DNA from: Patescibacteria group bacterium
Lineage (GTDB): Bacteria > Patescibacteriota > Patescibacteriia > UBA1558 > GWA2-36-10
DNA: 64,000 bases
Direction: 5' to 3'
Assembly: GCA_041665505.1 (NCBI GenBank)
Contig: JBAYIR010000003.1
Span: forward strand, 45,363 to 109,362
The translations under genes and the position numbers were made by a program. The notes under the pieces are model-generated. The model saw nothing but the letters and a program-made list of their open reading frames with translations. It was not told where the DNA came from and did not search any database. Shown here one piece after another: positions 38,559-64,000 of this stretch (its first letter is position 1; the number at the start of each line of letters is the position of its first letter).

Positions 38559-38692
38559 TTCGATTCCGTCGCGTATGACGCGACTTCACTCATGGCCTTC
38601 GGCCACTTATTTGGTATATAAAGTGATAAGTTGTCGAATGTCCTGAGCGATCCCGAGCATAGCGAGGGAGAGTCGAAGGGCAGGAGTATATT
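38553..38692 (+). repeat. Repeat R1 copy 1 (~95-nt well-conserved core within a ~140-nt span), immediately 3' of tRNA-Ser(TGA); second copy at 62189-62320
   Basis: About 93% identity over attccgtcgcgtatgacgcga ... ggccttcggccacttatttggtatataaagtgataagtt.tcgaatgtcctgagcga. Contains a gtcgcgt-atg-acgcgac hairpin and a ggcc-ttc-ggcc hairpin. Confidence 0.7.
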
Positions 38693-42825: not shown

Positions 42826-43827
42826 ATGTCTATAAAAACTGCAACACATCATTATGTGCCCAGGTGTTACCTAGAGAATTTTTTATGTGAAAAATCTAAT
42901 AATCAAATTTACGGGTATAAAAAGAGTGGTGAAATAATTAAATCAAATATAAAAAATATAGCTGCAAAGAATAATTTATATACATTTACTGATAAAACAA
43001 CAGGTAAAAAAACTAATATTGTTGAGAAAATGTTTGGAATAATAGAGTCAGCAGCCTGTCCGGTTATAAAAAATGTTATAGTTAATAAAGATATAAATTT
43101 AACAGATGCAGATAGAGGTGCTATAGCACAGTTTACAGCTTTTTTAGTAACTAGAAATTTATATTATGATACTCAGCAGAAGCACATGACTGCTGAACTT
43201 ATTAAACAAATGTCGATTGAAAGAGCCAAACATAAAGAATCTTTCAAGCATAGTTTTAAAGATGCTGGAATTACATTTGACAGCGATAAAGAATTTGAAG
43301 ATTTAAGAGATGCAGTATTAGATTTTGACAATCATTTTAAAGTTGATATAAGTGGGGGCGAGGGACATTTTATGAAAGTGGCAACTGACATAGCCATGGA
43401 ATTAACCAATATATTATATTTTAAAGAGTGGCACTTACTTATTAACGATGGTTCTCGTGTTTTTATCACCTCGGATAATCCTGTTACTCTCTGGGGTTTG
43501 AAAAGTACACCTAAGCAATTTAGATTGGGGTTTGCATTTGCATCTATTCTTTTAACTCTATCACCAGATGTATTACTTTTAATGCGTGATAGATTACTTA
43601 GTAAAACAATAATTAAATTAAATAGGGAAAAAATAGATTATGTAAATAAATCAATTATGAAAGGATCTGATAAATTTATTTATTCAAATTTAAAGTCTAA
43701 AGATTTATATAATAAATATTCGGAGTTATCTCAACACTCAAATCAAGTAAAAGTTCATAATATAAAATGGGCACCATATATTATTACACAGCAACCTGAA
43801 GCAGATATTGAGCCATCATTAGTCTAA
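42826..43827 (+). CDS. DUF4238-family protein (a family reported as a stand-alone anti-phage defence gene)
   Basis: N-terminal HHYVPRCYLENF matches the hallmark HhYvPqfYLrnF start of DUF4238; 333 aa. Confidence 0.65.
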   Translation: MSIKTATHHYVPRCYLENFLCEKSNNQIYGYKKSGEIIKSNIKNIAAKNNLYTFTDKTTGKKTNIVEKMFGIIESAACPVIKNVIVNKDINLTDADRGAIAQFTAFLVTRNLYYDTQQKHMTAELIKQMSIERAKHKESFKHSFKDAGITFDSDKEFEDLRDAVLDFDNHFKVDISGGEGHFMKVATDIAMELTNILYFKEWHLLINDGSRVFITSDNPVTLWGLKSTPKQFRLGFAFASILLTLSPDVLLLMRDRLLSKTIIKLNREKIDYVNKSIMKGSDKFIYSNLKSKDLYNKYSELSQHSNQVKVHNIKWAPYIITQQPEADIEPSLV

Positions 43828-43892
43828 AATAAAAAAAACAGTTCTTGCAGACTGTTTTTTTATTAAAATTTAAATTATATAGGTGCCTTTCT

Positions 43893-44615
43893 CTATAGTT
43901 TCTTTTGTATATGTCTTTCTATTATCTTATTTACATATTTATTTTTTAACCTGAAAGCCCTAATTTCAGCTGGTTGATTACTAAATGGTTGAACTGTTTT
44001 TGATTTATTACAATTTGGATCTTTAAATTTACCATTATGCTTGGGGCAGATAGTTAAATATTCATGCTGACCCTGATGTATATCGTGAGCCCGGCCCTCT
44101 TTTATTTTGGAAATAATTAAATTATAATCAGGCCGAAGTTCATTTAAAACTTTATTATCCATTTCCCATAAAAAAACATATTTTATAGTATATTCTGACC
44201 TAGACTTACTTTTCAAGTGTATATAAAAAATAAACAATATCTTTTTATTTTTTTTATAAAGTTCTGATTCCGTAATATCATTACATAAAGCTTCTTTACT
44301 ATAATTTATTATATTAAGCGATAATGGCTCTTTCACTCTTAAGGTCTTGTTATCAGATAAATATTTAAGCGGACATGTTTTTATTTCTATCCCCAGATGA
44401 TTTATATCTGGTAAAGCAGAGCTGTTCATATTTATTCCAAAGAAACCTTTTTCTATTAAGTAGCCAACATTGCCTTTAGTTGTGACCCTTGATTCTTCAT
44501 CTGATGTTTTTATAGATTTATGAATCTGATTCAAAGTTTTGCCTTCTAGCCACTTTGCTTCTTTTAATAAGGCTTCTTCGTTTGGTATGTCTTCAATTTT
44601 TTTATAGTTTATCAT
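43893..44615 (-). CDS. MutH/Sau3AI-family GATC-type endonuclease (restriction component)
   Basis: TKGNVGYLIEKGFFGINMNSSALPDINHLGIEIKTCPL aligns with the MutH block KGWIGVLLEIWLG ... PEQDFAALGVELKTIPV. Divergently paired with a C5-MTase. Confidence 0.75.
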   Translation of the reverse strand: MINYKKIEDIPNEEALLKEAKWLEGKTLNQIHKSIKTSDEESRVTTKGNVGYLIEKGFFGINMNSSALPDINHLGIEIKTCPLKYLSDNKTLRVKEPLSLNIINYSKEALCNDITESELYKKNKKILFIFYIHLKSKSRSEYTIKYVFLWEMDNKVLNELRPDYNLIISKIKEGRAHDIHQGQHEYLTICPKHNGKFKDPNCNKSKTVQPFSNQPAEIRAFRLKNKYVNKIIERHIQKKL

Positions 44616-44707
44616 ATTTTGTTAATATATTTTATGTAAAATAATGAAATTTGATCAATTTTAATCTTTATGTTATAATAGCAATAAATATATAAGTCAG
44701 CAAACTT

Positions 44708-45982
44708 ATGCCAAATAATAAAAAGAAAAAAACAATTAAAGTTATAGACCTTTTTGCCGGTGTCGGAGGCTTTCGTGTTGGGTTAGATAGAGCAAGTAAT
44801 ACAAAATATGGCTCTTTTGAGACCATCTGGAGCAATCAATGGGAGCCAGCTACCAAGAAACAACATGCTTCCGAAGTATATGTAGCTCGTTTTGGTAATA
44901 AAAACCACTCTAATGAAGATATAGCTAAAGAAGTGCAAAAGAATAACGTACCTGACCACGATCTTTTGGTTGGTGGTTTTCCCTGCCAAGATTATTCTGT
45001 AGCTAGGACTCTTAGCCAATCTGCTGGCATTGAAGGAAAAAAAGGAGTGTTGTGGTGGGAAATATATAAGATATTAAAAAACAAAGGAGCTAAGGCACCA
45101 AAATATTTATTTCTTGAAAATGTTGATAGATTATTAAAATCACCAGCCAACCAAAGAGGAAGAGATTTCGCAATTATACTAGGTTGTCTGGCAGAGCTTG
45201 GTTATGCTGTTGAGTGGCGTGTTATAAATGCTGCTGAGTATGGTTTTGCTCAAAGAAGAAGACGAGTCTATATATTAGGCTTTAAAAAAGGAACTAAGCA
45301 CTATAAAAAAATTGAAACTTTGCATAAAGAAAATAAGATACTAGATATAATAGAAAAAACTGGAATATTTGCCAAAGCTTTCCCTATAGAAAAAAATGAT
45401 ACTCCCATACCAGACATTAAACTTGATAAAAATATCAAAAAAATATCTGATAATTTTAATAAAGAGAAAGCTGGCTCCCGTAGCCTATTCAATAATTCTG
45501 GCGTCATGTTTAATAATGAAATATTTACATTACAAGTAAAAGAAGATTACACTGGCCCAAAGAAAACCATAGGTGACATAATATTACCTCTCAATAAAAT
45601 ACCAAAAGAATTTTTCATAGATAAAAATAGTTTAAAGAAATGGAAATATTTAAAAGGTGCAAAAAAAGAGCCTAGAAAAGGAAAGGATGGTCATGAGTTT
45701 TTCTATACTGAAGGTGGTATGGTTTTCCCTGATGCACTTGATAAACCATCCAGGACTATTATAACTGGTGAGGGTGGAGCATCTCCATCTAGATTTAAAC
45801 ACGTAATTGAACAAGATGGACAACTAAGAAGACTAACTCCTCTAGAGTTAGAACGTTTATGTGGTTTTGATGACCACCATACAGAAGGAGCAGCTGATGT
45901 AAAAAGAGCCTTCTTTATGGGTAATGCTCTCGTGGTTGGTGTTATAGAAAAAATAGGTAGAGAACTAATTAAGCGTGTTTAA
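44708..45982 (+). CDS. DNA (cytosine-5) methyltransferase
   Basis: Motif I IDLFAGVGGFRVGL, motif IV GGFPCQDYSVA, motif VI LFLENV, and C-terminal motifs; 424 aa. Confidence 0.9.
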   Translation: MPNNKKKKTIKVIDLFAGVGGFRVGLDRASNTKYGSFETIWSNQWEPATKKQHASEVYVARFGNKNHSNEDIAKEVQKNNVPDHDLLVGGFPCQDYSVARTLSQSAGIEGKKGVLWWEIYKILKNKGAKAPKYLFLENVDRLLKSPANQRGRDFAIILGCLAELGYAVEWRVINAAEYGFAQRRRRVYILGFKKGTKHYKKIETLHKENKILDIIEKTGIFAKAFPIEKNDTPIPDIKLDKNIKKISDNFNKEKAGSRSLFNNSGVMFNNEIFTLQVKEDYTGPKKTIGDIILPLNKIPKEFFIDKNSLKKWKYLKGAKKEPRKGKDGHEFFYTEGGMVFPDALDKPSRTIITGEGGASPSRFKHVIEQDGQLRRLTPLELERLCGFDDHHTEGAADVKRAFFMGNALVVGVIEKIGRELIKRV

Positions 45983-46076: not shown

Positions 46077-47387
46077 CTATACCAGCTTAATTTTTTTATT
46101 CATATAAATTAACTTGCTTTCTAGATTAGTTAGTAATTCTCTTTTTTCTAAAATTGAACCTTCTTTGAGTAAATATTTAGTATAATTTTTAATATCGATG
46201 TCGTCTACGTTAATGTCTTTAGTTTCTCCAGTTACCATACTTTGGAATTCTTTAAATCGTTTAATTTCATATTTTAATTTATTTTGTATAGGTAACTTTT
46301 TAATATCCAGCTTATCTACCAACTTTTGTAATTGTTTAATCAAATCTACTTCATTTATATACCCACACTTACAATGTTTATCTTTTGCTTTAGTACACCC
46401 ATAATAAATATGTTTGTTAGTATCTCCATTTTTTAATTTCTTGAATTTTTCAGTTGCAGATATACCAGAACCACAAAGTCCACATTTCATTATTTTAGTA
46501 AAAGCAAATTCAATATTTTCTTTTCTAACAAGTTGTGAATTTTTCATCTGATCTTGAACCATATCAAATAATTCTTTTGTTATTATCGGTTCATGCTTAC
46601 CTTGATACCAATTACCACTACCCCGTGGATATTCAAAAGGGCCATAGTAGAAAGTATTTTCAAGTAAGCGATAAATATTACCAAGACTCAAATGTTTTTT
46701 GCCCAAATGTGTTCTGAAGTTTAAATCAAATTTAAGCCAGTGATATATTTTTCTGCCCGACCATTTCTCATAAGCAACTTTTTCAAACATTTGTTTTATA
46801 ATATGGCCTCTATCTGGATCAACTAGACATTCTCCTTTGTGATCTATTCGTTTTTCTTTGAAATATCCAGTTGGCGGACAAGTTGGCCACAAACCCATTT
46901 CACATCTTGTCCTTAAACCACGTTTAACATTTATGCCTCTGTTATCATTTTCCAGTTTAGCTTGAGAACATAGAATCATTAATAAGAATTTTTCGTTTGG
47001 TGAATTACTAAACGTTTGTCCGTAGGTACGAATACCAAGAAGTTTTTTAGCATCCATCAGATCCACCAAAGACCCCAGATCTCCTGCGTTTCTAGATAGT
47101 CTATCTGGCGCCCAAGTTAAGATAGCATTAAATCTTTCTTCTGATATATCATGAATTAATTCTTTAAACACAGGACGATTACCAGAATCTTTAGCTGATT
47201 TGGATTCTCTTCTGATATCAATAATTTCAAGGTTTTCACGTTCTGCAATTTGAAGCATTTCTTTAACTTGAGAATCAATTGATAGAGCTTGTCGTTCATC
47301 TGATTCAGTACTTTTTCGGGCGTATAGGCAATACTTCAATTTAATGTCTGGGGTTAGCCCAAATTTGGTTTGTTGTGATATATTCAT
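46077..47387 (-). CDS. Large serine recombinase (resolvase N-domain, recombinase domain, zinc ribbon)
   Basis: N-terminal YARKSTESDERQALSIDSQ (catalytic Ser region), R..G motif, recombinase domain, and a C-terminal Cys cluster (CGLCGS ... YYGCTKAKDKHCKCG); 436 aa. Confidence 0.85.
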   Translation of the reverse strand: MNISQQTKFGLTPDIKLKYCLYARKSTESDERQALSIDSQVKEMLQIAERENLEIIDIRRESKSAKDSGNRPVFKELIHDISEERFNAILTWAPDRLSRNAGDLGSLVDLMDAKKLLGIRTYGQTFSNSPNEKFLLMILCSQAKLENDNRGINVKRGLRTRCEMGLWPTCPPTGYFKEKRIDHKGECLVDPDRGHIIKQMFEKVAYEKWSGRKIYHWLKFDLNFRTHLGKKHLSLGNIYRLLENTFYYGPFEYPRGSGNWYQGKHEPIITKELFDMVQDQMKNSQLVRKENIEFAFTKIMKCGLCGSGISATEKFKKLKNGDTNKHIYYGCTKAKDKHCKCGYINEVDLIKQLQKLVDKLDIKKLPIQNKLKYEIKRFKEFQSMVTGETKDINVDDIDIKNYTKYLLKEGSILEKRELLTNLESKLIYMNKKIKLV

Positions 47388-48552: not shown

Positions 48553-51500
48553 ATGAGAAAGAGTCTGCTCTTCGCAATGGCAATTGTGATGCTTATGGCA
48601 TCGTCAATTGCCTACGGACAAGGTCCAATCAGCGGGTTTTATTACCCTGCAGACGAGATGCTCAACAGTTGGCAATACTACAATAACCGAAGCTTTTATA
48701 TTTATAATGGTACTTATAACAACCATCTTGGAGCTGATATTGATCTAGCCGAAGGCACGGCCATAAAGGCCATAGCCAAAGGCAAGATAGTAGAGTACAG
48801 CTCACTATATGATGGCTATGGTGAATTGGTAGTAGCGATTGAGCATGAGTTGCCAGAGGATATCACTTTTTTGAATGCTGATGGCAATCCACAAACAACT
48901 AGATATATCCTGTCAATCTATGGCCACCTGCGCAAGAGCCAAGAAAGAGGTGGCACAGCATTGACTTGGTCTATCGGTCAGACCGTTCAGCAAGGGAGTG
49001 TTATTGGCTACATAAACAACAGTAGCCATCCAGATGGTGGTAGCCCAGACCCAAATGGTGATGGACTTGAGCATTTGCACCTAGGGATTCGCTTGTCGAA
49101 CGAAGCAACCGCTAAAGCTCAAGATGGTGGCTTTTGGCTACGCGGATATAATAGTGGATCGGGCATGCAAATTCACTTTGCAAATCCGATGCCCCTTATA
49201 GCCGGACTGGCGCAATTTGCCCAGTCACCTTCCTGGAGGACTGCCAATGGTGTATCATCAGCTTTTATGAACAGGTATAATGATTTCGCCACAAATGGTC
49301 ATCGCCTTGGCTTTCCCTGGCAAAACACTCAGTACGGTTCTACTTATGTCCACGAAGTCAACGGCATGTTGATCCAGGATTTCAAAGATCGCCGCGATGA
49401 TGAGGGGCCTAGTAATGGGTATTATCATCCTTATACAACCGTTATTTACTATAATGATCCTTGGATGAGTAGAGAACCTCATCTCGTCAAGGAGGGATTT
49501 TGGGATGAGTATATGACTCGTTTTGGCTGGCTCAAGTTTGGTGCACCAGTCACTGATGAGTATCCAAATAGTAGTGAAGTGTGGCAGAGTTTTAACCTTT
49601 TTGGTTCAAACTATGCCACCAATCCAAATGATTATGAGCGTTTTTATTTCACTTGGGATGAAGGTTCTCAAACTCTGGAGGTACTTGATAGTAATTATCA
49701 AGTAGTGCCTCGTGCCAATTTGACAGTAACCAACGGAGGAACAAACAAAGCCAACAAAGCGCTCACTGACGGTGTCTATCATTCTGGACTCAAGGTGTCA
49801 AACTTTGACCAGGCCTTTGAACTGATAGATGGAAATAATTATCAGAATTTCTATGCCTCCATTAATGGAGTGGAGATCCTCATGGATCCATTTGTCATGA
49901 ATGGTGATATGACTATAGTTGTTAGTGATGTGGATGTGCCAGTTGCCAACTTCAGTGCAACTCCAATGTCTGGAAATACCCCGCTTACCGTGCAGTTTAC
50001 CGACCTTTCAAGTGGTAACACCACTTCTTGGTTGTGGAACTTCGGTGATGGGGGTACTTCAACCAATCAGAACCCCAACCACACGTATACTACCCCTGGT
50101 AGTTATACTGTCAGCCTAACTGCTACCAATAGTGGTGGGAGTGACACGGTTGTTGGTGGCAGTCCAATTGTCGTTAACAACGTTGCTGCTCCTGTGGCAA
50201 ATTTCAGTGCAACTCCAATGTCTGGATATGCACCACTTACCGTTCAATTCACCGACCTTTCAAGTGGAGGTGCCACTTCTTGGTTGTGGGACTTTGGTGA
50301 CGGTAGTACGTCTACTAGCCAGAATCCTAGTCACACTTACAACATTGTGGGTAGCTACACAGTTTCTCTTACTGCCAGTAATAATGGCGGTAGTGATACT
50401 GTGCTTGGAGGTGCTCCTGTTATAGTAGGTAACCCACCAGCTCCAATAGCTGGTTATACTGTTTCGCCGACTTCTGGCGTTGTCCCTTTGACGGTGCAAT
50501 GTACAGATACATCGGTTGGGACAGTAACCTCGTGGTTGTGGGACTTCGGTGACGGTAGTACGTCTACTAGCCAGAACCCTAGTCACATTTACAACGTTGT
50601 GGGTGTCTACACTATCACCTTGACGGTGTCCAATGCCGGAGGCTGGGACTCTTTACAGTTTATTGACGGTATAACCACTACCAGTGTGTCTAATCTGGCA
50701 CCATGTGTTGTAAGTGACCTAAGCGTAGATAACGTCACAGTTATCTTCGTCTCTGGTAACTACGCCTACGTGGCAGATGGTAGTGCTGGTCTGAAGATCA
50801 TCGACGTTTCTGTTCCTGCAACGCCGACCATAGTTGGTTCGGCTAGTATGGATCACGTCATGGATGTGTTTGTTTCCGGGGACTACGCCTACGTGGCAGA
50901 TGGTAGTGATGGATTGAAGGTGGTCAACATCTCCAATCCGGCGACGCCAGTCATCGTTGGATCGGTAGTCACTGAAGGTGCTGAAGGCCTCTTCGTCTCT
51001 GGTAACTACGCCTACGTAGCTGATCTCTGGACACTAAAGGTCATCAACATCTCCAATCCTGCAACTCCGACAGTAGTTGGTTCGTTGAGCATGGATTGGG
51101 TTGTGGATGTGTTTGTTTCCGGTGACTACGCCTACGTGGCTGATAATGATGTAGGCTTGAAGGTGGTCAACATCTCCAATCCTGCGACGCCAGTCATCGT
51201 TGGATCGGTAGTCACGGACAGTGCTAGGGATGTCTGGATTTCTGGTGACTACGCCTACGTGGCTGATGGTAGTACTGGCTTGAAGGTGGTCAACATCTCC
51301 AATCCTGCGACGCCAGTCATCGTTGGTTCGGTAGTTACGAATGGAGCTATTGGCGTTTCTGTTTCCGGTGACTATGCCTATGTGGCAGACGTTAGCGCTG
51401 GCTTGAAGATCATTGATGTTTCTGATTCTACAACACCAACCATTGTTGGTGCGGTAGAGGCAGGTGGTTATATTAAAGACGTCTTCGTACTAGGAGACTA

Positions 51501-52080
51501 TATTTATTTGACAGAGTTCCATGAAGCAATGAAAATAGTCCAAAAAGATTGTGGGCTATTCCTGTCTGCAGACTTCACCGCTAACCCAACCAGCGTCTAT
51601 ACTGGTAACCCTGTTCAGTTCACTGACCAATCAACTGGAAACCCTAGTTCTTGGTCATGGAATTTCGGTAACGGCGTTACCTCAACTGCACAAAATCCGA
51701 TCTACGCTTACCCAGTTCACGGCACCTACACGGTGTCATTGACAGTAGGGGATGGAGTTACTTCAGACACTTTGGTGCGTACTGGCTACATTACGTCGTC
51801 AAGACCACCTATTGGTGAAGATCCTCCTTATCCCTACTGTGAACCCAACCCCTCTAACCCTGTTTCTGTCATCAAGTTCAAGGTCAATCAACCTGGCTAT
51901 GTCAACCTGTCCATTTTTGATGTACAGGGTCGACGCGTTCAGGTTTTGGTTGATCAGGTTCTTGATACTGGTGTGCATCAAGCGACTTTTAATGGCGAAA
52001 GTTTTGCCTCCGGCATCTACTTCTACATGATACGTAGTGCCGAGGGGACTGACGTCCGAAAGATCACACTGGTGAAGTAG
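48553..52080 (+). CDS. Secreted multidomain protein of foreign origin: M23 peptidase-like domain, four PKD domains, LVIVD beta-propeller repeats, a further PKD domain and a T9SS (Por) C-terminal sorting domain
   Basis: Signal peptide MRKSLLFAMAIVMLMASSIAYGQG. M23-like HLGADIDLAEGTAIKAIAKGKIV ... EHLHLGIR. PKD consensus repeated (FSATPMSG.TPLTVQFTDLS ... W.FGDG.TST.QNP.HTY ... GSYTVSLTA.N). Seven GDYAYVADG.GLKVVNISNPATP LVIVD units. C-terminal VNLSIFDVQGRRV ... GIYFYMIRS Por-tail. GC about 48% against ~31% for the flanks, and no SD upstream. Confidence 0.85.
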   Translation: MRKSLLFAMAIVMLMASSIAYGQGPISGFYYPADEMLNSWQYYNNRSFYIYNGTYNNHLGADIDLAEGTAIKAIAKGKIVEYSSLYDGYGELVVAIEHELPEDITFLNADGNPQTTRYILSIYGHLRKSQERGGTALTWSIGQTVQQGSVIGYINNSSHPDGGSPDPNGDGLEHLHLGIRLSNEATAKAQDGGFWLRGYNSGSGMQIHFANPMPLIAGLAQFAQSPSWRTANGVSSAFMNRYNDFATNGHRLGFPWQNTQYGSTYVHEVNGMLIQDFKDRRDDEGPSNGYYHPYTTVIYYNDPWMSREPHLVKEGFWDEYMTRFGWLKFGAPVTDEYPNSSEVWQSFNLFGSNYATNPNDYERFYFTWDEGSQTLEVLDSNYQVVPRANLTVTNGGTNKANKALTDGVYHSGLKVSNFDQAFELIDGNNYQNFYASINGVEILMDPFVMNGDMTIVVSDVDVPVANFSATPMSGNTPLTVQFTDLSSGNTTSWLWNFGDGGTSTNQNPNHTYTTPGSYTVSLTATNSGGSDTVVGGSPIVVNNVAAPVANFSATPMSGYAPLTVQFTDLSSGGATSWLWDFGDGSTSTSQNPSHTYNIVGSYTVSLTASNNGGSDTVLGGAPVIVGNPPAPIAGYTVSPTSGVVPLTVQCTDTSVGTVTSWLWDFGDGSTSTSQNPSHIYNVVGVYTITLTVSNAGGWDSLQFIDGITTTSVSNLAPCVVSDLSVDNVTVIFVSGNYAYVADGSAGLKIIDVSVPATPTIVGSASMDHVMDVFVSGDYAYVADGSDGLKVVNISNPATPVIVGSVVTEGAEGLFVSGNYAYVADLWTLKVINISNPATPTVVGSLSMDWVVDVFVSGDYAYVADNDVGLKVVNISNPATPVIVGSVVTDSARDVWISGDYAYVADGSTGLKVVNISNPATPVIVGSVVTNGAIGVSVSGDYAYVADVSAGLKIIDVSDSTTPTIVGAVEAGGYIKDVFVLGDYIYLTEFHEAMKIVQKDCGLFLSADFTANPTSVYTGNPVQFTDQSTGNPSSWSWNFGNGVTSTAQNPIYAYPVHGTYTVSLTVGDGVTSDTLVRTGYITSSRPPIGEDPPYPYCEPNPSNPVSVIKFKVNQPGYVNLSIFDVQGRRVQVLVDQVLDTGVHQATFNGESFASGIYFYMIRSAEGTDVRKITLVK

Positions 52081-52109
52081 CTCCGTTTGTTGTTTTGAAA
52101 CCCTAACCG

Positions 52110-52155
52110 AGCCCTACTTGTTGCACGCAGTGCAGCGGGTAGGGCTTATTTTTTT
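52110..52155 (+). terminator. Rho-independent terminator after the foreign gene
   Basis: agccctac ... gtagggct stem with an internal GC-rich hairpin, followed by TTTTTTT. Confidence 0.65.
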
Positions 52156-52164
52156 ATATAAATA

Positions 52165-52230
52165 ACATTTATATAGCTTTTGCTAAGCCTCGCTATGTCG
52201 ACAACTTGTTGGCAACTTTCCTTAGCAAAA
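52165..52230 (+). repeat. Direct repeat B (partner of A at 47402-47466)
   Basis: See repeat A; the same orientation on the + strand. Confidence 0.7.
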
Positions 52231-52488
52231 CTATAAAATTGCGTTATGATAATATAGACATTTGGCTAGTTTTGAGCTAAAATGTTATTGACAATTAGGT
52301 GTAAAAACCGATGCCTAAACCCTAGAAATTCTAGGGCATGGTATAAAAAACTCGTTGAAAATATTGAACTCCGCGTTCAGTGACTTTTCAACGAGTCATA
52401 TCGGGAAACTGGTATGGGGCCGTAAGGCCTAGCTGGCGCGGGGTTTTATGTTTGCGTCAGCTGATAATTAATAAGTAAGTAAAATATT

Positions 52489-53438: not shown

Positions 53439-54902
53439 TTAAGCAAAATAAATTCTATAAGTTTTTGGTCTATGTTCTGATAAGCTATGGACCAGATTGG
53501 CAAAGGCATCAGCTAAGTCGTCATGTTTTTCTACCCCAAAATGAATAATCTGTTGTATCAATTGTTCAGCTCCTTGTTTAGGAAATAGTATCTGTCCATT
53601 TTTGATCATGTTAGCTGTCAGGACAAGGCGACTACGCTTGTCCTGATTACCTGGCCTTGTTGTCATGACGTTCAAAATACCCTCACTTTCTAATTGTTGC
53701 GGCAAAGCTTTTTGATAAGCTACATCTTCAATAACAAAGGTAGGATGAATTTCGTCCTTTTCGTAGCTTTTGTCCAATATTTTGCAGGTATCAACGGTTT
53801 CCGGAAAGCTCAAACGTTTATTTATTATCTTTGGCAAAATATAAATCTGATAACCAGTTTTGGTTTCATATAGAAGTCCGGGAACCATAGCCGTATAATC
53901 AGCCACATTACTTTTTGAAATAGCTGGATCTATACCTATTCTTATTTCAATATGAGAAGAATAAGCACTGTCTATTTTTATAGGAGCTGGTATCTCATCA
54001 TAGTATTGAATCCATTCTGGATATATAACTTGATCTTCATCTGGAACTATATTAAGCATATATTCTCGTTGCCAAGCAATTTCATTGCCTGTTTTTTTTC
54101 GTTCTGTTTGTACGTCTTGCTCTGTAGGATATTTACCAGGCCAGAGACATTTTCCTTTACTATCAATAATTGGAAAATAAAGAAATTTTCCATCAATAAA
54201 ATCATTATCAATTTCACTTTTAAGTCGCATGAGAAGTGAATCTTCGTGTAATAAATTACCAACTATAACTAACCGTGTATTTTTATCTCCTGCTGGGATT
54301 AATTCTCCTTTTAACCATTGATAAGTCTTATTTCTTCCTTCTCTTGTTTTTGTAGAAGCAATATTTTCAACATCGTCACAGATTATCAAATCTGGTCTAT
54401 GCTCATGATGTCTTAAACCGCGAATACTTTGTTCTGAAGAAGCTACTGTAATACGAGCGTCTGTATTAGAAAATACCAATGACTGTGAACCCCACTCATC
54501 GCTATCTTCACGAAATGGGCCGAGGTCTTTTTTAAGTAATTCGTTGTCCTCAAGTTCACGGCGTAAATTCATCATATGCTGTTTGGCCTGGGCTTGTGTC
54601 TGACAAAATATAACGACGAATCTCTTTTGCTGTTTACCTAAAATAGCCCAAATAGGATAGGCGGTTGTAACCATTGTCGATTTTCCACTTCCCCTGAAGG
54701 CGACCACAAATAGATTGTCTCGGTCACTTATTTCTATTAAATGGATAATCTCTTTTTGGAAATCAGCTGTAGCGTATTTTACATAGTGAGCGTAATAAAA
54801 ATGGAAAAAATATGAAAAACTTTCTTTAGTTATTGTCGTCCTTACTTTCCTGTCCTTGGTCATCTGGTCTACCAGATCCTGTGGTATCATTTTGTTTGTC
54901 AT
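53439..54902 (-). CDS. Phage terminase large subunit
   Basis: N-terminal ATPase Walker A VAFRGSGKSTMVT and Walker B LIICDDVEN. C-terminal RNaseH-like nuclease region with acidic residues; 487 aa. Confidence 0.75.
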   Translation of the reverse strand: MTNKMIPQDLVDQMTKDRKVRTTITKESFSYFFHFYYAHYVKYATADFQKEIIHLIEISDRDNLFVVAFRGSGKSTMVTTAYPIWAILGKQQKRFVVIFCQTQAQAKQHMMNLRRELEDNELLKKDLGPFREDSDEWGSQSLVFSNTDARITVASSEQSIRGLRHHEHRPDLIICDDVENIASTKTREGRNKTYQWLKGELIPAGDKNTRLVIVGNLLHEDSLLMRLKSEIDNDFIDGKFLYFPIIDSKGKCLWPGKYPTEQDVQTERKKTGNEIAWQREYMLNIVPDEDQVIYPEWIQYYDEIPAPIKIDSAYSSHIEIRIGIDPAISKSNVADYTAMVPGLLYETKTGYQIYILPKIINKRLSFPETVDTCKILDKSYEKDEIHPTFVIEDVAYQKALPQQLESEGILNVMTTRPGNQDKRSRLVLTANMIKNGQILFPKQGAEQLIQQIIHFGVEKHDDLADAFANLVHSLSEHRPKTYRIYFA

Positions 54903-55296
54903 CTGATTTATTATTTAATGGTAAAATCTCCGCCAGTTGCAAAGCTTTGCGTACAATCTCTGCTTGTGACGGTGTAAGTTCTCCTGAGTCTTCAAATTTA
55001 GAAGTAACTTCCACTTTATCTCTAAATTTTGGATTTCTATGATTAAGCCAAAATCTTATAGCCGAAAAGTTTTTTTCTTTTATAAGGGTAAGTAATTGGC
55101 TTTCACTCATATCATTGACCAATGCCTCACCTTCGGTTAATGCCTCATCCATAGCTTTAGAGAAATTTTTATCATCTCGTTTCCAACGATAGATACTATT
55201 TCTTGAGATACCTGTTTTTTCACAGGCTATCTGTACGATTGGAATTTTCTTTAGTTCCTCTAGGAATATATTTTTGATTTTATTTTTCTTAGACAT
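54826..55296 (-). CDS. HTH DNA-binding protein, probable phage terminase small subunit
   Basis: IVQIACEKTGISRNSIYRWKRDD helix-turn-helix, acidic C-terminal tail, positioned immediately upstream of and overlapping the large terminase. Confidence 0.5.
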   Translation of the reverse strand: MSKKNKIKNIFLEELKKIPIVQIACEKTGISRNSIYRWKRDDKNFSKAMDEALTEGEALVNDMSESQLLTLIKEKNFSAIRFWLNHRNPKFRDKVEVTSKFEDSGELTPSQAEIVRKALQLAEILPLNNKSDDKQNDTTGSGRPDDQGQESKDDNN

Positions 55297-57784: not shown

Positions 57785-58123
57785 ATGATAAATAAACAAA
57801 CCCCAGAACAATTTATTGGTTCCCGTATTAAAGCGGCGCGTGAAAAAAAACGATTTTCTCAGCTAGATTTGGCGAAGCTTCTTGGTTTTCAGTCAGCCAC
57901 CGCTATTTCATTAATAGAAGCTGGTGAAAGAGGTGTCCCAGCTATAATTTTAGAGAAGCTCGGTAAAGTGTTAGATCGTGATATTATGTATTTTTTAGGT
58001 AAAGAAAATACTACTCCAGATATCAAAGTAGCTTTAAGAGCCGACAAAGATCTGTCCGACGAAGACAAGGATGCTTTAAATTTATTTATTGACCTAGCTA
58101 AAAACAGAAAGAAACGTAAATGA
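57785..58123 (+). CDS. XRE-family HTH transcriptional regulator
   Basis: FSQLDLAKLLGFQSATAISLIEAGERGVP is a canonical XRE helix-turn-helix. Confidence 0.85.
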   Translation: MINKQTPEQFIGSRIKAAREKKRFSQLDLAKLLGFQSATAISLIEAGERGVPAIILEKLGKVLDRDIMYFLGKENTTPDIKVALRADKDLSDEDKDALNLFIDLAKNRKKRK

Positions 58124-58620
58124 ATGGAGAAATCACGGATTTAGGTCCACGTAAAAAAAGTGCAAAAATTATTGCCCAAAAACTTATAAAAGAAGCCGGA
58201 GTAAAAGCTGCTCCGGTTTCTTTACAATGTATTATAGAGCATCTTCAGTTAACACATGATCTTGAGGTTCGTCGAATTTTTACTAGTAAAAAGGTTTCTG
58301 GATTGCTTGTAGTCTGCAGTGAAATGGACAAAGAGTATTCAACTATAGGATTCAATGCTAATGATTCTTGGTATCGTAGGAGATTTACAATAGCACATGA
58401 AATTGGTCATCTTCTTTTTGGTCACGCCTGTACTAAGGGCCAAGGTAATGGTTCGCACAACGAAAGAGAGGCCGATGTTTTTGCTGCAGAATTACTTATA
58501 CCCACAAAACTTATAAAGATGGATTTTAAACAATTACCCAATTTACAGCAACTTTCTAATCTTTATAGAGTAAGCCAGCAAGCACTTACTATAAAGTTAA
58601 TAGAATGTCGGTTGGTGTGA
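58120..58620 (+). CDS. ImmA/IrrE-family metallopeptidase
   Basis: HEIGHLLFGH (HEXXH) preceded by RRRFTIA. A 4-nt overlap with the XRE gene, the classic XRE/ImmA pair. Confidence 0.8.
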   Translation: MNGEITDLGPRKKSAKIIAQKLIKEAGVKAAPVSLQCIIEHLQLTHDLEVRRIFTSKKVSGLLVVCSEMDKEYSTIGFNANDSWYRRRFTIAHEIGHLLFGHACTKGQGNGSHNEREADVFAAELLIPTKLIKMDFKQLPNLQQLSNLYRVSQQALTIKLIECRLV

Positions 58621-58647
58621 AGTTAAAAAATTAAAGTTTTTAATATA

Positions 58648-59313
58648 ATGGGTTTGTCTCAGGATAGAATTAAAGAATTTAAAGAACTTCTTGAAAAAAA
58701 GACAAAAAAAGAGGTTTCTTGGGCTGAAGCAGAAGAAGGGGCTAATAATTTAGCTAATTTTTTCAAACTTCTTTATGATCAGGAAGTAATAGAGAAAAAA
58801 CGTCAAATAAGGCTAGAAAAGGAGCCAAAAGGCTTTCATTTAGAGGGTAAAGGTTACACTTGTGCTATTTGTAAAAGGCCTATATCAGACGAAGAAACTT
58901 GGTATGATAAATGGGGTATTAAATGCCCAATATGCCAAAAAGCTATAAATAAAAGGATTATCCCTGGATCTGTGGCTAAAAATGATAATAGTTGGTACTC
59001 AAAATATGATTTAGAAAGTCGTTTTAATATAGATAGATATGCTATAAAACGATTTATTAAAGAGGGTGTTTTAAAACCTCGAATTGTCCCTAGCACATCA
59101 GGAAGACCACATGTATATCTATTTTTGATTAAGGACAACAAAGAAGTGCTACCACCTAAAAAATTAACAGAATCTCAACTAGTAAAAGAAATTAAAGAGG
59201 ATGGTAAAGAATGGCTTCGCTTAGAGCCGTGGTATAGGTTTGTTGATCCTTTTAAACATTTAGAGGGGTATAAAATTATGGAGTATTTAAAGTTTACAAA
59301 AGATAAGGCATGA
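58648..59313 (+). CDS. Hypothetical zinc-ribbon protein
   Basis: CAICKRP ... CPICQK pairs (CxxC ... CxxC); 221 aa; overlaps the next gene by 4 nt. Confidence 0.5.
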   Translation: MGLSQDRIKEFKELLEKKTKKEVSWAEAEEGANNLANFFKLLYDQEVIEKKRQIRLEKEPKGFHLEGKGYTCAICKRPISDEETWYDKWGIKCPICQKAINKRIIPGSVAKNDNSWYSKYDLESRFNIDRYAIKRFIKEGVLKPRIVPSTSGRPHVYLFLIKDNKEVLPPKKLTESQLVKEIKEDGKEWLRLEPWYRFVDPFKHLEGYKIMEYLKFTKDKA

Positions 59314-62015
59314 ATAAAATTGATACTAAAATTTTAGATATTGATAAAGTAATATGTAAAAATATTGATAGATTTGATGACTCTGAAAGAGGTTTACTAT
59401 CTCAAAATATCTTATCTCAACTTAGAAATTTTGTTGAGCATATTTCGTTAAAAGTACACAGTAATGGGAAAGATATTGAAAATACATATGAAAATATTCA
59501 GATAGCTAATGCTTATGTAAGAACAAGGGGTGAATTAAAATTTTTAAGTAAATTTCATAAACTTCTACAAATCACAGCCTCTCATTACACACTTGATACA
59601 GAAAACTCTGAAAGACTGATGTTAAAATATTATGAATACTTGCTTAAAATAAAGTTATATCTCAAGGATAATCACAATTTGGAGGTTCTGAAAAACATTG
59701 ATTCTTTTCCCATCAACACAGATACTGTGTTGCAAGAATACTATAAAAAAATAGTTGAAAAGATTAATCAATCAAAATCAACAAAGGCAGAAAATGATTA
59801 TGATAGATATTATATTCAGAAAATAAAACCATTTTTTGTTGAGTATAAAGTATATTATGAAGTTACTTTTACAGCAGCTAATGATAAGGCAAGTAAATTC
59901 GATAGAGTTATCGCATTCACGAAATTTGATATTTCACACAACTATGCTGTAAAACTTTCTGTAAGTAATGATACTATACAAATTTTAGATAAAAATATGC
60001 CCATTCAAATTATTGATGATTGGGAGGTGTCAATTCGTCCATGCGAGCTAAATAATTTTGCCAGCATATTTTTAGGAAATCGTTCAGGCATACAAAGCAA
60101 CTACAGTGAATACCGTAATCTAATGACATTTTTAACTAAAACGGGGTTAAATCTAGTTGAATTTATTGACTCCGCAGACGATTATTATAAAAAAATAAGA
60201 AGTCTTATAATTAAGGAAGCTAAAGCCGTTTATTTGTTTAATATTTTGGATAAGTGTCGCGAGTTAACACAAAGCAATAAATCAGGAAACAATGTTATTA
60301 GGTATTTATTATATAATTTGAATAATAAAATAATAAAACAACAACATAAATTTGGAGGTTGCCACCTATTATCAGATTTACATCTTGAATATGGATGTAT
60401 ACCTTTTGATAAAATGCCATTTAACACTTCCTTAATAGAACATAATCCAAAAATTTCTGATTTATTCGATTGTCTAGATTCAAGTAATAGAGAACATGAG
60501 ATATTTGCTAGGTTTATAAAAAATAATACTGAAACAAAGGGGCAGTTGTATACTCCTAAAAAAAATATCACTAGCTTTGAAAATATAGACAATCTTATGC
60601 AGTTATATAATGATAGTCTATATTATAAACATGCCCATCGTAAACTCGAAGAATATAAAAATCATATTTATATAAAGGGTTATGAAGAAGGCGCCTTCCA
60701 TATTATTAAAAATTTAAAAGACCTATCTTCTACGGGGATCAAAAATTATAAAAATTCTGTAAATTCTTGGTTAAAAACATCTGCATATGAAATTGATTGT
60801 GACGATAAAAAAGAAGCCTTAAGAAACATGTTTGAAAAATCAAGAGTAGCTTTAATATATGGTCCTGCTGGAACAGGAAAATCAACTATGATAAATCACG
60901 TATCTAACTTTCTCAATAATTACAGAAAACTATATTTGGCTAATACTAACCCGGCAGTCGAAAATCTAAAAAGAAGAGTTAACGCTTCTAACAGCACTAT
61001 TAAAACTATTACTAAATTTTTATCTGCTAGAAATGAAGATGTTGAATTTGATGTATTAATAATTGATGAATGTAGTACGGTTAGCAATTCTGATATGCAT
61101 AAAATTTTGGATAAAGCATCATTCGAATTATTAGTCTTAGTAGGAGATGTTTTTCAAATAGAGTCTATACTTTTCGGAAATTGGTTTAATATAGTACAGT
61201 CTTTCGTTCCAGAAACTTCAATATTTGAATTAACTAAACCATATCGTAGCAAAAATCCTAAGTTACTTAATCTATGGGATAAAGTCAGAAATATAGATGA
61301 TGATATAGATGAACAAATTACAAAACATAATTATTCAGCTACTTTAAATGAATCTTTTTTTACTAGTTCTGATGAAGATGAGATAATCCTGTGTCTTAAC
61401 TATGATGGACTTTATGGCATAAATAATATAAATAAATTTTTACAAAGTGATAATAAGAATAAACCAATAAATTGGGGTGTTCATACATATAAAGTTAATG
61501 ATCCTATATTATTTAATGAGTCAGAAAGATTTACACCTTTGATTTATAATAACTTAAAAGGAAAAATAGTCGGCATAAAAAAATTTAGTGACAAAATACA
61601 ATTTGATATTGAGATAGATAAGGCCATAAACCAGTTTGAAGCCGATAGATATGATTTTGAATTAATTGGTGATTCTAATAATGGTAACTCAATAATCCGT
61701 TTTTTTGTTAATAAGCATGGAAGTACGGATGAAGATGATGATTCATATTCAAATACTATAGTCCCTTTTCAAGTCGCTTATGCCGTATCAATACATAAAG
61801 CTCAAGGTTTAGAGTACAATTCAGTTAAAATTGTTATTATAGACGAAACGGAAGAAATGATTACCCATAATATTTTTTATACTGCTATAACAAGAGCTAG
61901 GGAAAAGTTAAAAATATACTGGACACCGGAAACTGGGCAAAAGATATTAAGCAATCTTGAGAGGAGAAATAACGGGAAAGATGCTAAATTATTAGCATTA
62001 AAATTTAATCTTTAA
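59310..62015 (+). CDS. SF1 DNA helicase (RecD/Pif1-like AAA_30 plus UvrD_C_2) with an uncharacterised ~480-aa N-terminal domain
   Basis: Walker A ALIYGPAGTGKST, Walker B VLIIDECSTVS, and C-terminal AYAVSIHKAQGLEYNSVKIV ... YTAITRAREKL typical of RecD/TraA-like SF1 helicases. Confidence 0.75.
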   Translation: MNKIDTKILDIDKVICKNIDRFDDSERGLLSQNILSQLRNFVEHISLKVHSNGKDIENTYENIQIANAYVRTRGELKFLSKFHKLLQITASHYTLDTENSERLMLKYYEYLLKIKLYLKDNHNLEVLKNIDSFPINTDTVLQEYYKKIVEKINQSKSTKAENDYDRYYIQKIKPFFVEYKVYYEVTFTAANDKASKFDRVIAFTKFDISHNYAVKLSVSNDTIQILDKNMPIQIIDDWEVSIRPCELNNFASIFLGNRSGIQSNYSEYRNLMTFLTKTGLNLVEFIDSADDYYKKIRSLIIKEAKAVYLFNILDKCRELTQSNKSGNNVIRYLLYNLNNKIIKQQHKFGGCHLLSDLHLEYGCIPFDKMPFNTSLIEHNPKISDLFDCLDSSNREHEIFARFIKNNTETKGQLYTPKKNITSFENIDNLMQLYNDSLYYKHAHRKLEEYKNHIYIKGYEEGAFHIIKNLKDLSSTGIKNYKNSVNSWLKTSAYEIDCDDKKEALRNMFEKSRVALIYGPAGTGKSTMINHVSNFLNNYRKLYLANTNPAVENLKRRVNASNSTIKTITKFLSARNEDVEFDVLIIDECSTVSNSDMHKILDKASFELLVLVGDVFQIESILFGNWFNIVQSFVPETSIFELTKPYRSKNPKLLNLWDKVRNIDDDIDEQITKHNYSATLNESFFTSSDEDEIILCLNYDGLYGINNINKFLQSDNKNKPINWGVHTYKVNDPILFNESERFTPLIYNNLKGKIVGIKKFSDKIQFDIEIDKAINQFEADRYDFELIGDSNNGNSIIRFFVNKHGSTDEDDDSYSNTIVPFQVAYAVSIHKAQGLEYNSVKIVIIDETEEMITHNIFYTAITRAREKLKIYWTPETGQKILSNLERRNNGKDAKLLALKFNL

Positions 62016-62188
62016 GCCCTATATTTATAAAAATTACAGCTAAATGTAACTTTATACTGGCTTGCCGTGTCACTTTTGTCACTTTTTTATAAAAATAAGG
62101 CGCACGAGGATCTATTGATTTGTAAAATTATAATATAGTAAAATAACCTTACTGGGCTTATTCGGAATACGGTTCCAGCCCGAAGTAG

Positions 62189-62320
62189 CCCGCCATTCAA
62201 TTCCGTCGCGTATGACGCGATTCCACTCATGGCCTTCGGCCACTTATTTGGTATATAAAGTGATAAGTTATCGAATGTCCTGAGCGAGTGAACAAAGTGA
62301 ACGAGTCGAAGGGCACTCGT
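62189..62320 (+). repeat. Repeat R1 copy 2, preceded by a degenerate tRNA-Ser(TGA)-like 3' half; right junction of the accessory region
   Basis: 62150-62197 cggaatacggttccagcccgaagtagcccgcca resembles the variable/T/acceptor 3' part of tRNA-Ser. A 95-nt segment ~93% identical to 38556-38650 follows, then the att/terminator module (62315-62375). Confidence 0.6.
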
Positions 62321-62404
62321 GCTAACACGAAGTACTTAAGAAAACAGCTTCTCAGGTAAGCCGTTTTTTGTTATTATAAAGATAATTAATATTTAGATTA
62401 TTGT

Positions 62405-63004
62405 ATGTCAGATATCCCAATAAAATTAGATTTTTTTAGAAAATTAGAGCTATTTCAACAATTGATAGTTCTAAATAGAAGATCTAAAAATGGTAATGAT
62501 TATGTTAAAAAAAATTGGAGAATGGAGAAGAAAATTCTCAGATGGGCTAGTAAAAATTCTCATATATTGTCAATACCATTTGATATGGATCATATTTATT
62601 TTGAATTTTATCAAGAAGAATATGATGACACTAAGACACGCTTACTTAGAAAATTTGTTAATGAGAATAAGCTGGATTCTTATGATATTACAGAAGAACA
62701 TGAACAAATAATAGAAAAGCAAACTAAAAATTATTTTGAAGAAAAGTATGGTGAGTTTAAATATATTTTTGGTAATCTGGTACATAGGGGTTTTGCAGAA
62801 TATTCCTCTAAAAAATTTAATAATTATGAAATATTTATAACACAAACAGGTCTTTTGATGGGCAACGTAATAGATGATTATGAAGGTTCTATTTTCTGGT
62901 TAAAATATCCCTTGTTTATAATAATAGTTTGGATTTTTGTTATATCAGTGATTATTATAACCATATCACAAGCAATTAGTGTTTTTTTGTTTGATCTTAG
63001 ATAA
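62405..63004 (+). CDS. Hypothetical protein with a C-terminal TM helix
   Basis: 199-aa ORF with C-terminal LFIIIVWIFVISVIIITISQAISVFLF. Confidence 0.45.
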   Translation: MSDIPIKLDFFRKLELFQQLIVLNRRSKNGNDYVKKNWRMEKKILRWASKNSHILSIPFDMDHIYFEFYQEEYDDTKTRLLRKFVNENKLDSYDITEEHEQIIEKQTKNYFEEKYGEFKYIFGNLVHRGFAEYSSKKFNNYEIFITQTGLLMGNVIDDYEGSIFWLKYPLFIIIVWIFVISVIIITISQAISVFLFDLR

Positions 63005-63028
63005 AAATAAATGAATATTTAACTATTA

Positions 63029-63057
63029 TTGACAAAATCATTACAAAATAATATACT
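63029..63057 (+). promoter_or_regulatory. Near-consensus sigma70 promoter
   Basis: TTGACA, 17-nt spacer, TATACT, followed by a tctgg..ccaga hairpin and a GGGAGA RBS 7 nt before the ATG at 63118. Confidence 0.5.
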
Positions 63058-63117
63058 GTTTTGATTCTGGTAATCCTGCCAGAATGTTTGTACACACTCG
63101 TGATAGGGAGATCCATC

Positions 63118-63351
63118 ATGGACGACCAAGCACCAGATACCACCCCGGGCACCACCACTCCTGGAACTCCGCCCACGGACAGTGAGAACAGCACCTACCT
63201 TCGGGACCTCCTGGACGATCCCGAGCACTTCAAGCTGACGGCTCAGGTGACCAGGCGTCACTACGAGGCGCTCTGCGAGGTCGGCTTCACGCCGGATCAG
63301 GCCGTCAAGATCGTGTCTCACAACATGATGATGTTGCCCTGTTCCTGTTGA
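63118..63351 (+). CDS. Small (77 aa) protein encoded in a ~60% GC segment; function unknown
   Basis: ATG with a good RBS. GC-rich third codon positions (gac/acc/ccg/ggc ...). Thr/Pro-rich N-terminus then HYEALCEVGFTPDQAVKIV. Followed by a 13-bp GC hairpin (ccggaccgccaac ... gttggcggtccgg) and an AT-rich terminator at 63404-63433. Confidence 0.45.
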   Translation: MDDQAPDTTPGTTTPGTPPTDSENSTYLRDLLDDPEHFKLTAQVTRRHYEALCEVGFTPDQAVKIVSHNMMMLPCSC

Positions 63352-63403
63352 TCGACGTGCGTACCCGGACCGCCAACATAGTTAGTTGGCGGTCCGGGGC
63401 ACT

Positions 63404-63433
63404 TTACACAGCCAATACTGTTTTTAACAGTAT
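63404..63433 (+). terminator. Rho-independent terminator
   Basis: aatactgtt-ttt-aacagtatt 9-bp stem followed by a T-run. Confidence 0.55.
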
Positions 63434-63545
63434 TTTTTGTTTTTATTTTAGCTTGATTTAATGTATAATTAAGCTTAATATATACTAAGATACATCAGAA
63501 TAGCTTATCTATTATACTACTAAAATTTGAAACAAAAATATTGTT

Positions 63546-64000
63546 ATGAGAATTGGTTTTTTTACGGAGATATATCTACCACATCTTAATGGAATTACCA
63601 TTAGTTTAATTTTTGCTAAAAAAGAATTAGAAAAAAGAGGCCATCAAGTATATATTTTTACTCCAAAAATAGCTGGTTATAAAGATAAAGAAAATAATAT
63701 CATCCGCCTACGTTCTATAGCCATCCTTAATCCAGAACTAGAACTAAAACTTCCTATATCAGCCATTGATGTTCGTAAAATTCTTAAACTAAAATTAGAT
63801 GTTGTCCATGGTCATGGCTGTGGGCTAGTGAGTATCCTTGGTTATGAGTTAGCTCTGACCAAAGGATATCCTTATGTTTTTACTTATCACACCTATTTAG
63901 AAAAATATACCCACTACTTTTTTTTAAAAAATAAAAAAATAACTAATAAAATAGCCAAAAATAGCAGCCGTTTTATCTGTAATGTCAGCGATCTAGTAAT
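63546..64000 (+). CDS. Glycosyltransferase family 4 (N-terminal part; gene continues beyond the window)
   Basis: MRIGFFTEIYLPHLNGITISLIFAKKELEKRGHQVYIFTPK is the typical GT4 N-terminal domain. The frame is open to the window end. Confidence 0.7.
   Translation, partial: MRIGFFTEIYLPHLNGITISLIFAKKELEKRGHQVYIFTPKIAGYKDKENNIIRLRSIAILNPELELKLPISAIDVRKILKLKLDVVHGHGCGLVSILGYELALTKGYPYVFTYHTYLEKYTHYFFLKNKKITNKIAKNSSRFICNVSDLV

Follow-up and report, generated by a model that had tools for sequence, protein, structure and literature searches.

Among described genetic elements, prophage morons are the closest in layout to the locus considered here. As known from lambdoid phages, these are autonomous extra genes that carry their own promoter and terminator and have an atypical base composition. 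The locus is a cassette at 63029-63444 on the forward (+) strand of a 64-kb stretch of DNA from a Patescibacteria group bacterium (contig JBAYIR010000003.1; this whole stretch of 64,000 nt is called the window below), and it encodes a predicted protein of 77 residues. Like a moron, it is a single small gene with a sigma-70-type promoter in front and a factor-independent terminator behind, its base composition is sharply unlike that of its neighbours, and it adjoins mobile and defence genes; unlike the morons, the same type of cassette recurs in several Patescibacteria. The island is a genuine, self-contained small protein gene and its product, as judged from sequence, is a further member of a phage-associated family of unknown function. 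Because the block is compositionally foreign and the family is found mostly in phage genomes, the reading that we favour, with some reserve, is that of a moron-like cassette that was acquired from a phage source and then kept or disseminated among the Patescibacteria.

The island stands out by an abrupt change in G+C content (GC). When measured in 100-nt windows, the GC fraction rises from 0.19-0.25 at 62950-63099 to 0.57-0.64 at 63100-63399 and falls again to 0.20-0.23 from 63400 onwards. Resolved in 20-nt steps, the edges lie at about 63090 and 63400, with approximately 60% GC inside the block and 25-35% around it, which bears out the shift from about 30% to about 60% and back to low GC that had been described in a first-pass annotation of this DNA. 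The block comprises the Shine-Dalgarno (SD) sequence, the open reading frame (ORF) and a GC-rich hairpin. Nowhere else in the window does a 234-nt stretch reach a GC of at least 55%, and the island gene has a GC of 0.60 compared with 0.34 +/- 0.04 for the genes of the window.

Through an exact-sequence look-up of the 199-residue protein encoded next to the cassette, the island could be located in three assemblies. It is identical, and has the same AT-rich flanks, in the ENA assembly to which the 129-kb contig of the window belongs (L001) and in a Logan assembly from a different run (L002), and a JGI metagenome contig (L003) holds it with three substitutions, of which two are synonymous and one is non-synonymous (Thr to Ala). 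The right flank of the JGI contig departs from the window just after the terminator, at about 63443. Its positions 1071-1213 are unrelated to the glycosyltransferase flank of the window (63444 onwards) and match nothing else in the window; therefore, the cassette and the 199-residue gene have another right-hand neighbour in that population. As this divergent tail is unmatched anywhere in the window, we rejected the idea that it marks the other end of a mobile element. Similarly, no second copy of the island was found within the window, and a diversity-generating retroelement with its template repeat was rejected since the island is single-copy there.

The expression signals of the cassette are compact and well ordered. 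The putative sigma-70-type promoter, called solely by its match to the consensus (11/12), consists of TTGACA at 63029-63034, a 17-nt spacer and TATACT at 63052-63057; it is the top-scoring site in 62000-64000 and one of only three sites that score at least 11/12 on both strands of the window. The -35 element, spacer length and -10 element are the same in a cassette at position 9912 of another Patescibacteria locus (L008). A hairpin (AUUCUGGUA / UGCCAGAAU, 4-nt loop; 63064-63085) would stand at the extreme 5' end of the transcript if the inferred start is right. This hairpin appears in the minimum free energy and centroid folds of both the window and L008, and the one difference between the two, a U-A to U-G change, keeps the pairing. 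The 28-nt motif TTGATTCTGGTAATNCNGCCNGAATGTT occurs once in the window and, among the fetched loci and viral contigs that were searched, elsewhere only in L001-L003, L008 and L023. We suggest that the hairpin acts as a stabilizer of the mRNA.

The SD sequence, GGGAGA at 63106-63111, is placed 6 nt before the ATG at 63118 and is unpaired in the centroid fold. Of 49 genes in the window, the 77-codon ORF is the only one preceded by an SD 4-mer core. Such cores are almost absent from the related genomes as well (3/13 genes in locus L005, 1/14 in L007 and 2/21 in L008), and many genes in these Patescibacteria start a few bases 3' of a TATAAT-like box, which suggests that their mRNAs may be mostly leaderless or have short leaders. 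Downstream of the ORF, a GC-rich hairpin (63364-63398) with a perfect 14-bp stem (63364-63377 / 63385-63398, CCCGGACCGCCAAC / GTTGGCGGTCCGGG) and a 7-nt loop starts 12 nt past the stop codon and has no U tract. Because it lies inside the GC-rich block, it was probably acquired jointly with the ORF. It is followed by an AT-rich intrinsic terminator (63414-63444), read from sequence and fold, in which a 9-bp stem (63414-63422 / 63426-63434, AAUACUGUU / AACAGUAUU) with a 3-nt loop precedes a run of T; the stem has fewer than three G-C pairs and the consensus scan did not call it. The 3' region with both stems folds with z = -7.6 against shuffles. The first-pass annotation had recognized the promoter, the GGGAGA ribosome-binding site and the 77-residue ORF with its high-GC codon usage, all of which we could confirm. 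It had also seen the GC hairpin and the AT-rich terminator behind it, although the stem that it put at 13 bp is in fact 14 bp long, and it had overlooked the hairpin at 63064-63085.

The coding sequence (63118-63351; 77 codons and TGA) has GC values of 0.56, 0.47 and 0.77 at codon positions 1, 2 and 3, respectively, and the order GC3 > GC1 > GC2 is found in the frame of the ORF alone. Its GC at third positions (GC3, 0.77) is far from the mean of 0.25 (standard deviation 0.05) for the 47 other genes of the window (z = 10.7). The exact sequence of the product gave no record when looked up and, among the three assemblies, only the JGI contig records it as a called gene. The predicted product, which includes the stretches HYEALCEVGFTPDQAVK and YLRDLLDDPEHFK, is acidic (pI 4.5, net charge -7) and soluble. 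An AlphaFold2 model built from the family alignment (mean pLDDT, the per-residue confidence score, 72.7; core 85-97) shows disorder over the Thr/Pro-rich N-terminus (residues 1-20), followed by three helices at 21-32, 35-55 and 59-68 and by a Met/Cys-rich tail. As a short three-helix unit with a 'GF' turn, it is reminiscent of UBA-like modules, domain III of RuvA and the N-terminal module of EF-Ts, but the echoes of RuvA domain 3, EF-Ts and UBA_DHX29 are all non-significant (Foldseek E >= 1.6; Pfam E >= 0.03). In its subclade, the tails contain many His, Met and Cys residues (SHNMMMLPCSC at 63319-63348 of the window; AHSTPMTMMNI and AHGTPMTMMTI at the C-termini of relatives P0006 and P0027) and recall soft-metal-binding motifs; P0011 has no such tail.

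The relatives of this protein emerged gradually. A first metagenome scan for protein relatives returned none, and a word-indexed search with the single protein matched only the JGI copy. The sole match of a genome-collection scan (L004) was rejected as a chance hit in an antisense frame within a CpaF-type ATPase gene. When 1.8 billion cluster representatives were scanned exhaustively with HMMER, 26 matches emerged in two classes, one of multi-repeat proteins (discussed below) and one of small single-domain proteins of 53-70 residues that align to residues 18-72 of the query. Profile searches then yielded 32 and, subsequently, 45 matches, and thus delineate a small family of about 45 predicted three-helix proteins, 44-111 residues in length, with the core motif K(K/R)xYDALxxxGFTP(D/E)QAxxI. 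Among the 33 aligned members, 30 match PHROG 26408, a phage protein family of unknown function, at E <= 0.001 (best 6.9e-11). The product, which had been called unfamiliar, therefore has a family, and most of that family falls into PHROG 26408. A literature search for phrog_26408 and for the GFTPDQA motif gave no paper that refers to either. PHROG 26408 and the 77-residue product have the core K(K/R)xYDALxxxGFTP(D/E)QA in common; the latter adds the disordered Thr/Pro-rich N-terminus and the Met/Cys tail and falls into a subclade (KRHYDAL...KIVxH) whose members come mainly from chromosomes of Patescibacteria.

The link of the family to phages is broad. Its members occur mostly in phage genomes and only sporadically in bacterial chromosomes; relatives are encoded in 14 IMG/VR loci, an annotated homologue is gp129 of Rhodobacter phage RcZahn, and others lie just upstream of a VRR-NUC nuclease gene in the Xanthomonas phages Pfeifenkraut and Langgrundblatt. 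GC-rich relatives are found in natively GC-rich contigs, at 59% GC in L031 (where P0036 is encoded on a contig of small phage-like genes) and at 57% GC in L035, and in other subfamilies the GC of the gene equals that of its flanks. The foreign composition of the island and these GC-rich relatives support the proposal of a small gene gained by horizontal transfer, which was broadly right. On two other, GC-richer metagenome contigs (L024, 331-2792, and L027, 2651-6420), a gene of the 56-57-residue 'IVAGQGxG(V/F)K' subfamily stands directly 5' of an SMC-like gene and, in L027, also downstream of an RNase III-like gene, both labels coming from a reading of the translations. Given that the product is acidic and fast-evolving and that phages encode homologues among their early or DNA-metabolism genes, a role as a protein-binding module in phage-host conflict might be guessed at.

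The nearest relatives, those of the KRHYDAL...KIVxH subclade, are encoded at three other Patescibacteria loci with flanks of 35-39% GC. These are L005 (GCA_964443785.1; gene GC3 0.62), L007 (a Logan contig syntenic with L005; gene GC3 0.69) and L008/L023 (GCA_018819405.1; gene GC3 0.82), each with a flank GC of 35-38%. Each of L005, L007 and L008 has a TTGACA-17-TATnnT promoter, a leader of 55-110 nt, a strong SD sequence and a terminator. The cassettes of the window and L008 have nearly base-identical promoters and 5'-terminal hairpins, and dN/dS (the ratio of non-synonymous to synonymous divergence) between them in the protein core is 0.76. Since the same GC-rich, SD-led, consensus-promoter architecture occurs at different positions in other Patescibacteria, the odd composition is a trait of the clade and not the trace of a one-off, very recent transfer as first proposed.

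The comparison of L005 with L007 gives a measure of age. The neighbouring genes of the two loci encode proteins with 76-99% amino-acid identity and the small gene one with 67%. The synonymous divergence (dS) of the small gene, 0.58, falls inside the range of 0.44-1.5 found for its neighbours, and its dN/dS is 0.33 against 0.02-0.19 for the latter. Because dS lies in the range of the neighbours, the small gene in L005/L007 has been passed down with its surroundings, while evolving fast. The window is not syntenic with L005, L007 or L008. An Na+/H+ exchanger of the window organism is 72-77% identical to that of L005/L007, and the cassette is at a different locus in the window; the L008 cassette is at a third. 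These different loci therefore favour movement of the cassette.

If the favoured reading is right, a strong, AT-rich promoter of the host type would start a transcript of about 375 nt, the 5' end of which would fold into the conserved hairpin and may protect the mRNA. The exposed, strong SD sequence would then drive translation of the 77-residue acidic protein, and the GC hairpin followed by the U-tract terminator would end the transcript. The GC-rich block (SD sequence, ORF and GC hairpin) would have come from a phage as a moron-like cassette, which at present adjoins an island of mobile and defence genes. Several observations weigh against this account. The right-hand copy of an att-like repeat (described below) ends 0.8 kb upstream of the cassette, so that the cassette and the 199-residue gene lie just outside the repeat, next to an island with a serine recombinase, terminase-like genes and CapH/CapP-PDC-S53 and apparently not among phage genes as a moron would, and there is no mobility gene within the cassette. 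The neighbours of the L005/L007 cassettes are housekeeping genes, another apparent difference from a moron. The only PHROG match of the 77-residue product itself, to PHROG 26408, is weak (E = 0.003, 19 bits), and a blastn search against phages and plasmids gave no nucleotide relative and identified no donor. In the search for a clue to function, no family in Pfam, NCBIfam or PADLOC fits the product, the family profile found no chain in the PDB at E <= 1, and Foldseek found no significant match to the model of the product in the PDB or BFVD. Finally, the proteins of the window and L008 are only 49% identical in the core and both genes keep a GC3 near 0.8, and the retention of GC-richness during vertical inheritance in L005/L007 fits slow amelioration and, equally, selection for GC or for the SD sequence.

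Those last points bear directly on the foremost alternative, which we consider possible, though on the unlikely side. According to this alternative, the gene would be an old resident of the Patescibacteria in which selection maintains the whole syndrome, so that GC-rich codons, a long leader and a strong SD sequence are kept against AT pressure. What is gained could be an mRNA of unusual stability; alternatively, in genomes that are otherwise largely SD-free or leaderless, the message could be translated in a ribosome state that makes use of the anti-SD sequence. The presence of the same three anomalies in four lineages speaks for selection, as do vertical retention across a dS of 0.58 and the better conservation of the promoter and 5' hairpin than of the protein between the window and L008. 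Furthermore, the ribosomal-protein genes beside L005/L007 have a GC3 of 0.31-0.37, and the codon usage of the small gene is therefore not a generic bias of highly expressed genes. However, synonymous sites are free to vary among the cassettes, and the coding region has a folding energy that is unremarkable given its codons (z = -0.3 in the window and -0.4 to -1.8 in the other cassettes, against synonymous-codon shuffles). The GC3 of 0.62-0.69 in L005/L007 may represent partial amelioration, at a dS of 0.58, from a value of about 0.8; the cassettes occupy non-syntenic positions in related genomes, and GC-rich relatives are known in GC-rich contigs. UTR and codon patterns like those of the cassette were sought in viral contigs and none was found. 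Overall, these data do not require selection, and the architecture may persist through either slow amelioration or selection.

A different question is raised by a resemblance of the protein to the repeats of transcription activator-like effectors (TALEs). The motif ...ALxxxGFTP(D/E)QVVxIxSH..., nearly a whole repeat unit, is common to the 77-residue product and to TALE and TALE-like repeats (Xanthomonas TALEs, RipTALs, Bats, MOrTLs and the arrays P0002-P0005 and P0009 of Gammaproteobacteria metagenome-assembled genomes). One might then suppose that the product is a free-standing TALE-like DNA-binding unit, which recognizes DNA as a TALE repeat does. Consistent with this, residues 47-68 match the Pfam family TAL_effector (E = 9.5e-5), the family most often matched by members of the group (6/33), and a His-Asn pair sits at the position of the product equivalent to the base-specifying residues of TALEs. 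An hhalign comparison of the family profile with a TALE-like repeat profile gave a probability of 97.2-97.6% (E = 4e-11 to 4e-12 over 26-27 columns), where 16 of the 20 units of the latter profile were taken from proteins retrieved with the 77-residue query and four were canonical units entered by hand. Against the proposal, the Pfam match scores 23.1 bits, below the gathering score of 28, and there is a single unit in place of a tandem array of 33-35-residue repeats, with no tandem repeat visible in the 77-residue ORF. E-values of 1e-20 to 1e-10 against TALE proteins were rejected as evidence, as they are sums of per-repeat hits of at most 6.5 bits. No TALE appears among the PDB chains (family profile, E <= 1) or the Foldseek matches, members of the family do not consistently have His at the base-specifying ('RVD') position, and the net charge of -7 argues against binding of DNA at one repeat per base. 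Such a DNA-binding role is thus very unlikely, and the product is by definition not a TALE-like protein. A common origin of the family core and the TALE repeat unit is possible.

The multi-repeat class of the HMMER scan is TALE-like. Four of the five proteins scanned (P0002, P0003, P0005 and P0017) pass the Pfam TAL_effector threshold; P0004 reaches 33.5 bits overall, with no single repeat match that passes alone. Together with P0009, these proteins are uncharacterized arrays of 33-residue repeats (...SKNLEAV..ALK.LGFT.EQ.VK..SHxGG), and the two TALE-like array proteins with source names come from Gammaproteobacteria metagenome-assembled genomes. It has been pointed out that a plausible progenitor of the TALE repeat is still needed as an outgroup to root the families of TALE-like proteins (de Lange et al., 2015; PMC4787788). 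A combined reading, in which the cassette is a selected, long-standing feature of the Patescibacteria and its product and the members of PHROG 26408, including those of the Xanthomonas phages, are free-standing single TALE-like units and candidate progenitors of the TALE repeat, seems to us unlikely.

We see only a slim chance that the gene encodes a component of a toxin-antitoxin system or the precursor of a ribosomally synthesized and post-translationally modified peptide (RiPP), in which the leader would be conserved and the Cys/Met-rich tail variable. The conserved core, the highly variable tails (MMMLPCSC, TPMTMMNI, ASPLILDF) and the adjoining defence island would suit such a role, but none of the four Patescibacteria loci has an adjacent partner gene or maturation enzyme, and a soluble acidic protein is unlike type I toxins. 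Nor does the product match an NHLP, Nif11 or toxin-antitoxin family in Pfam or NCBIfam, or any system in PADLOC, so that the earlier suggestion of a toxin, antitoxin or regulator finds no family evidence in these three collections.

Slimmer still is the chance that the island is a structured non-coding or dual-function RNA in which the ORF is incidental. In an AT-rich genome, a GC-rich island is often an RNA gene; this one has a strong promoter as well as a terminator and, taken as a whole, it folds with z = -4.3 on the + strand. This extra stability stems from the three terminal hairpins and not from the coding region, however, and the minus strand folds comparably (z = -4.1). A search of Rfam 15 over the island gave no match at the gathering threshold and nothing relevant at E <= 10, ARAGORN found no tmRNA in the island, and the product has protein-level homologues in genes of ordinary GC content. 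Finally, the assembly chimera, contaminant fragment or engineered insert raised by the first-pass annotation has the abrupt change of composition as its sole support and is negligible in probability, given identical junctions in the independent ENA and Logan assemblies, a JGI contig with three substitutions, and an AT-rich promoter and 5' hairpin beside the GC block that are homologous to those of L008/L023.

The surroundings of the cassette are themselves rich in mobile and defence genes. Immediately upstream, on the same strand, the AT-rich gene of 199 codons (62405-63004) encodes a protein with a hydrophobic C-terminal segment and no assigned family, and it accompanies the cassette in L001-L003; neither this protein nor the 77-residue product gave a match in PADLOC. 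Further upstream, a 98-nt direct repeat with 96% identity links 38553-38650, which covers the 3' end of a tRNA-Ser(tga) gene and the downstream spacer, with 62190-62287, and a weaker similarity reaches to about 62325. The repeat copy at 62190-62287 accounts for a second GC bump in the window (62100-62350), which also contains a degenerate 3' half of a tRNA. On this sequence evidence, the two copies look like the attL and attR sites of an integrated island of about 23.6 kb.

The interval between the two copies holds restriction-modification genes, genes for a large serine recombinase and a surface protein (the latter with a LOOT RNA), terminase-like genes, and a CapH/CapP-like pair with PDC-S53. 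At 42826-45982, a DUF4238 protein (PADLOC DUF4238-Pers), a MutH-like endonuclease and a protein named DNA (cytosine-5-)-methyltransferase in the source record are encoded in what is probably a restriction-modification or defence cluster. The stretches 46077-47387 and 53439-55296, both inside the putative island, hold the large serine recombinase (Resolvase, Recombinase and Zn_ribbon_recom domains), a terminase-large-like gene with a weak Terminase_6N match and a gene with an HTH_Tnp_1_2 domain that could encode a small terminase subunit. In the region 48553-52430, the surface protein, of 1175 residues (M23, PKD, LVIVD and Por_Secre_tail domains), is encoded by a gene with 47% GC and a GC3 of 0.44, well over the host average, and the LOOT RNA (RF03000, 89 bits) comes directly after it at 52312-52430. 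In the region 57785-62015, an HTH_3 gene and a Peptidase_M78 gene match CapH and CapP of PADLOC and are followed by an ORF of 221 residues and by a 901-residue SF1 helicase, which is a full-length match (1350 bits) to the candidate defence gene PDC-S53. A Bacteroidota host, as the Por_Secre_tail domain might suggest, was rejected because the source names of ten window proteins point to a metagenome-assembled genome of the Patescibacteria; the VirB4 protein encoded in the window clusters with Candidatus Komeilibacteria.

In summary, this cassette reveals a gap in annotation, as a gene with one of the top three promoter matches (11/12) and the only SD sequence in 64 kb was called in just one of three assemblies, and it illustrates how small genes are left unannotated in genomes of the candidate phyla radiation. 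Should none of the more far-reaching proposals hold, the locus would be an ordinary acquired hypothetical gene. The recurrence of a GC-rich, SD-led design in AT-rich, SD-poor Patescibacteria amounts to a natural experiment on amelioration versus selection and, if selection maintains the design, a special mode of mRNA stabilization or translation would be implied. Furthermore, if the link to TALE repeats reflects common descent, a family of small phage proteins would provide the single-unit outgroup for the origin of the TALE repeat.

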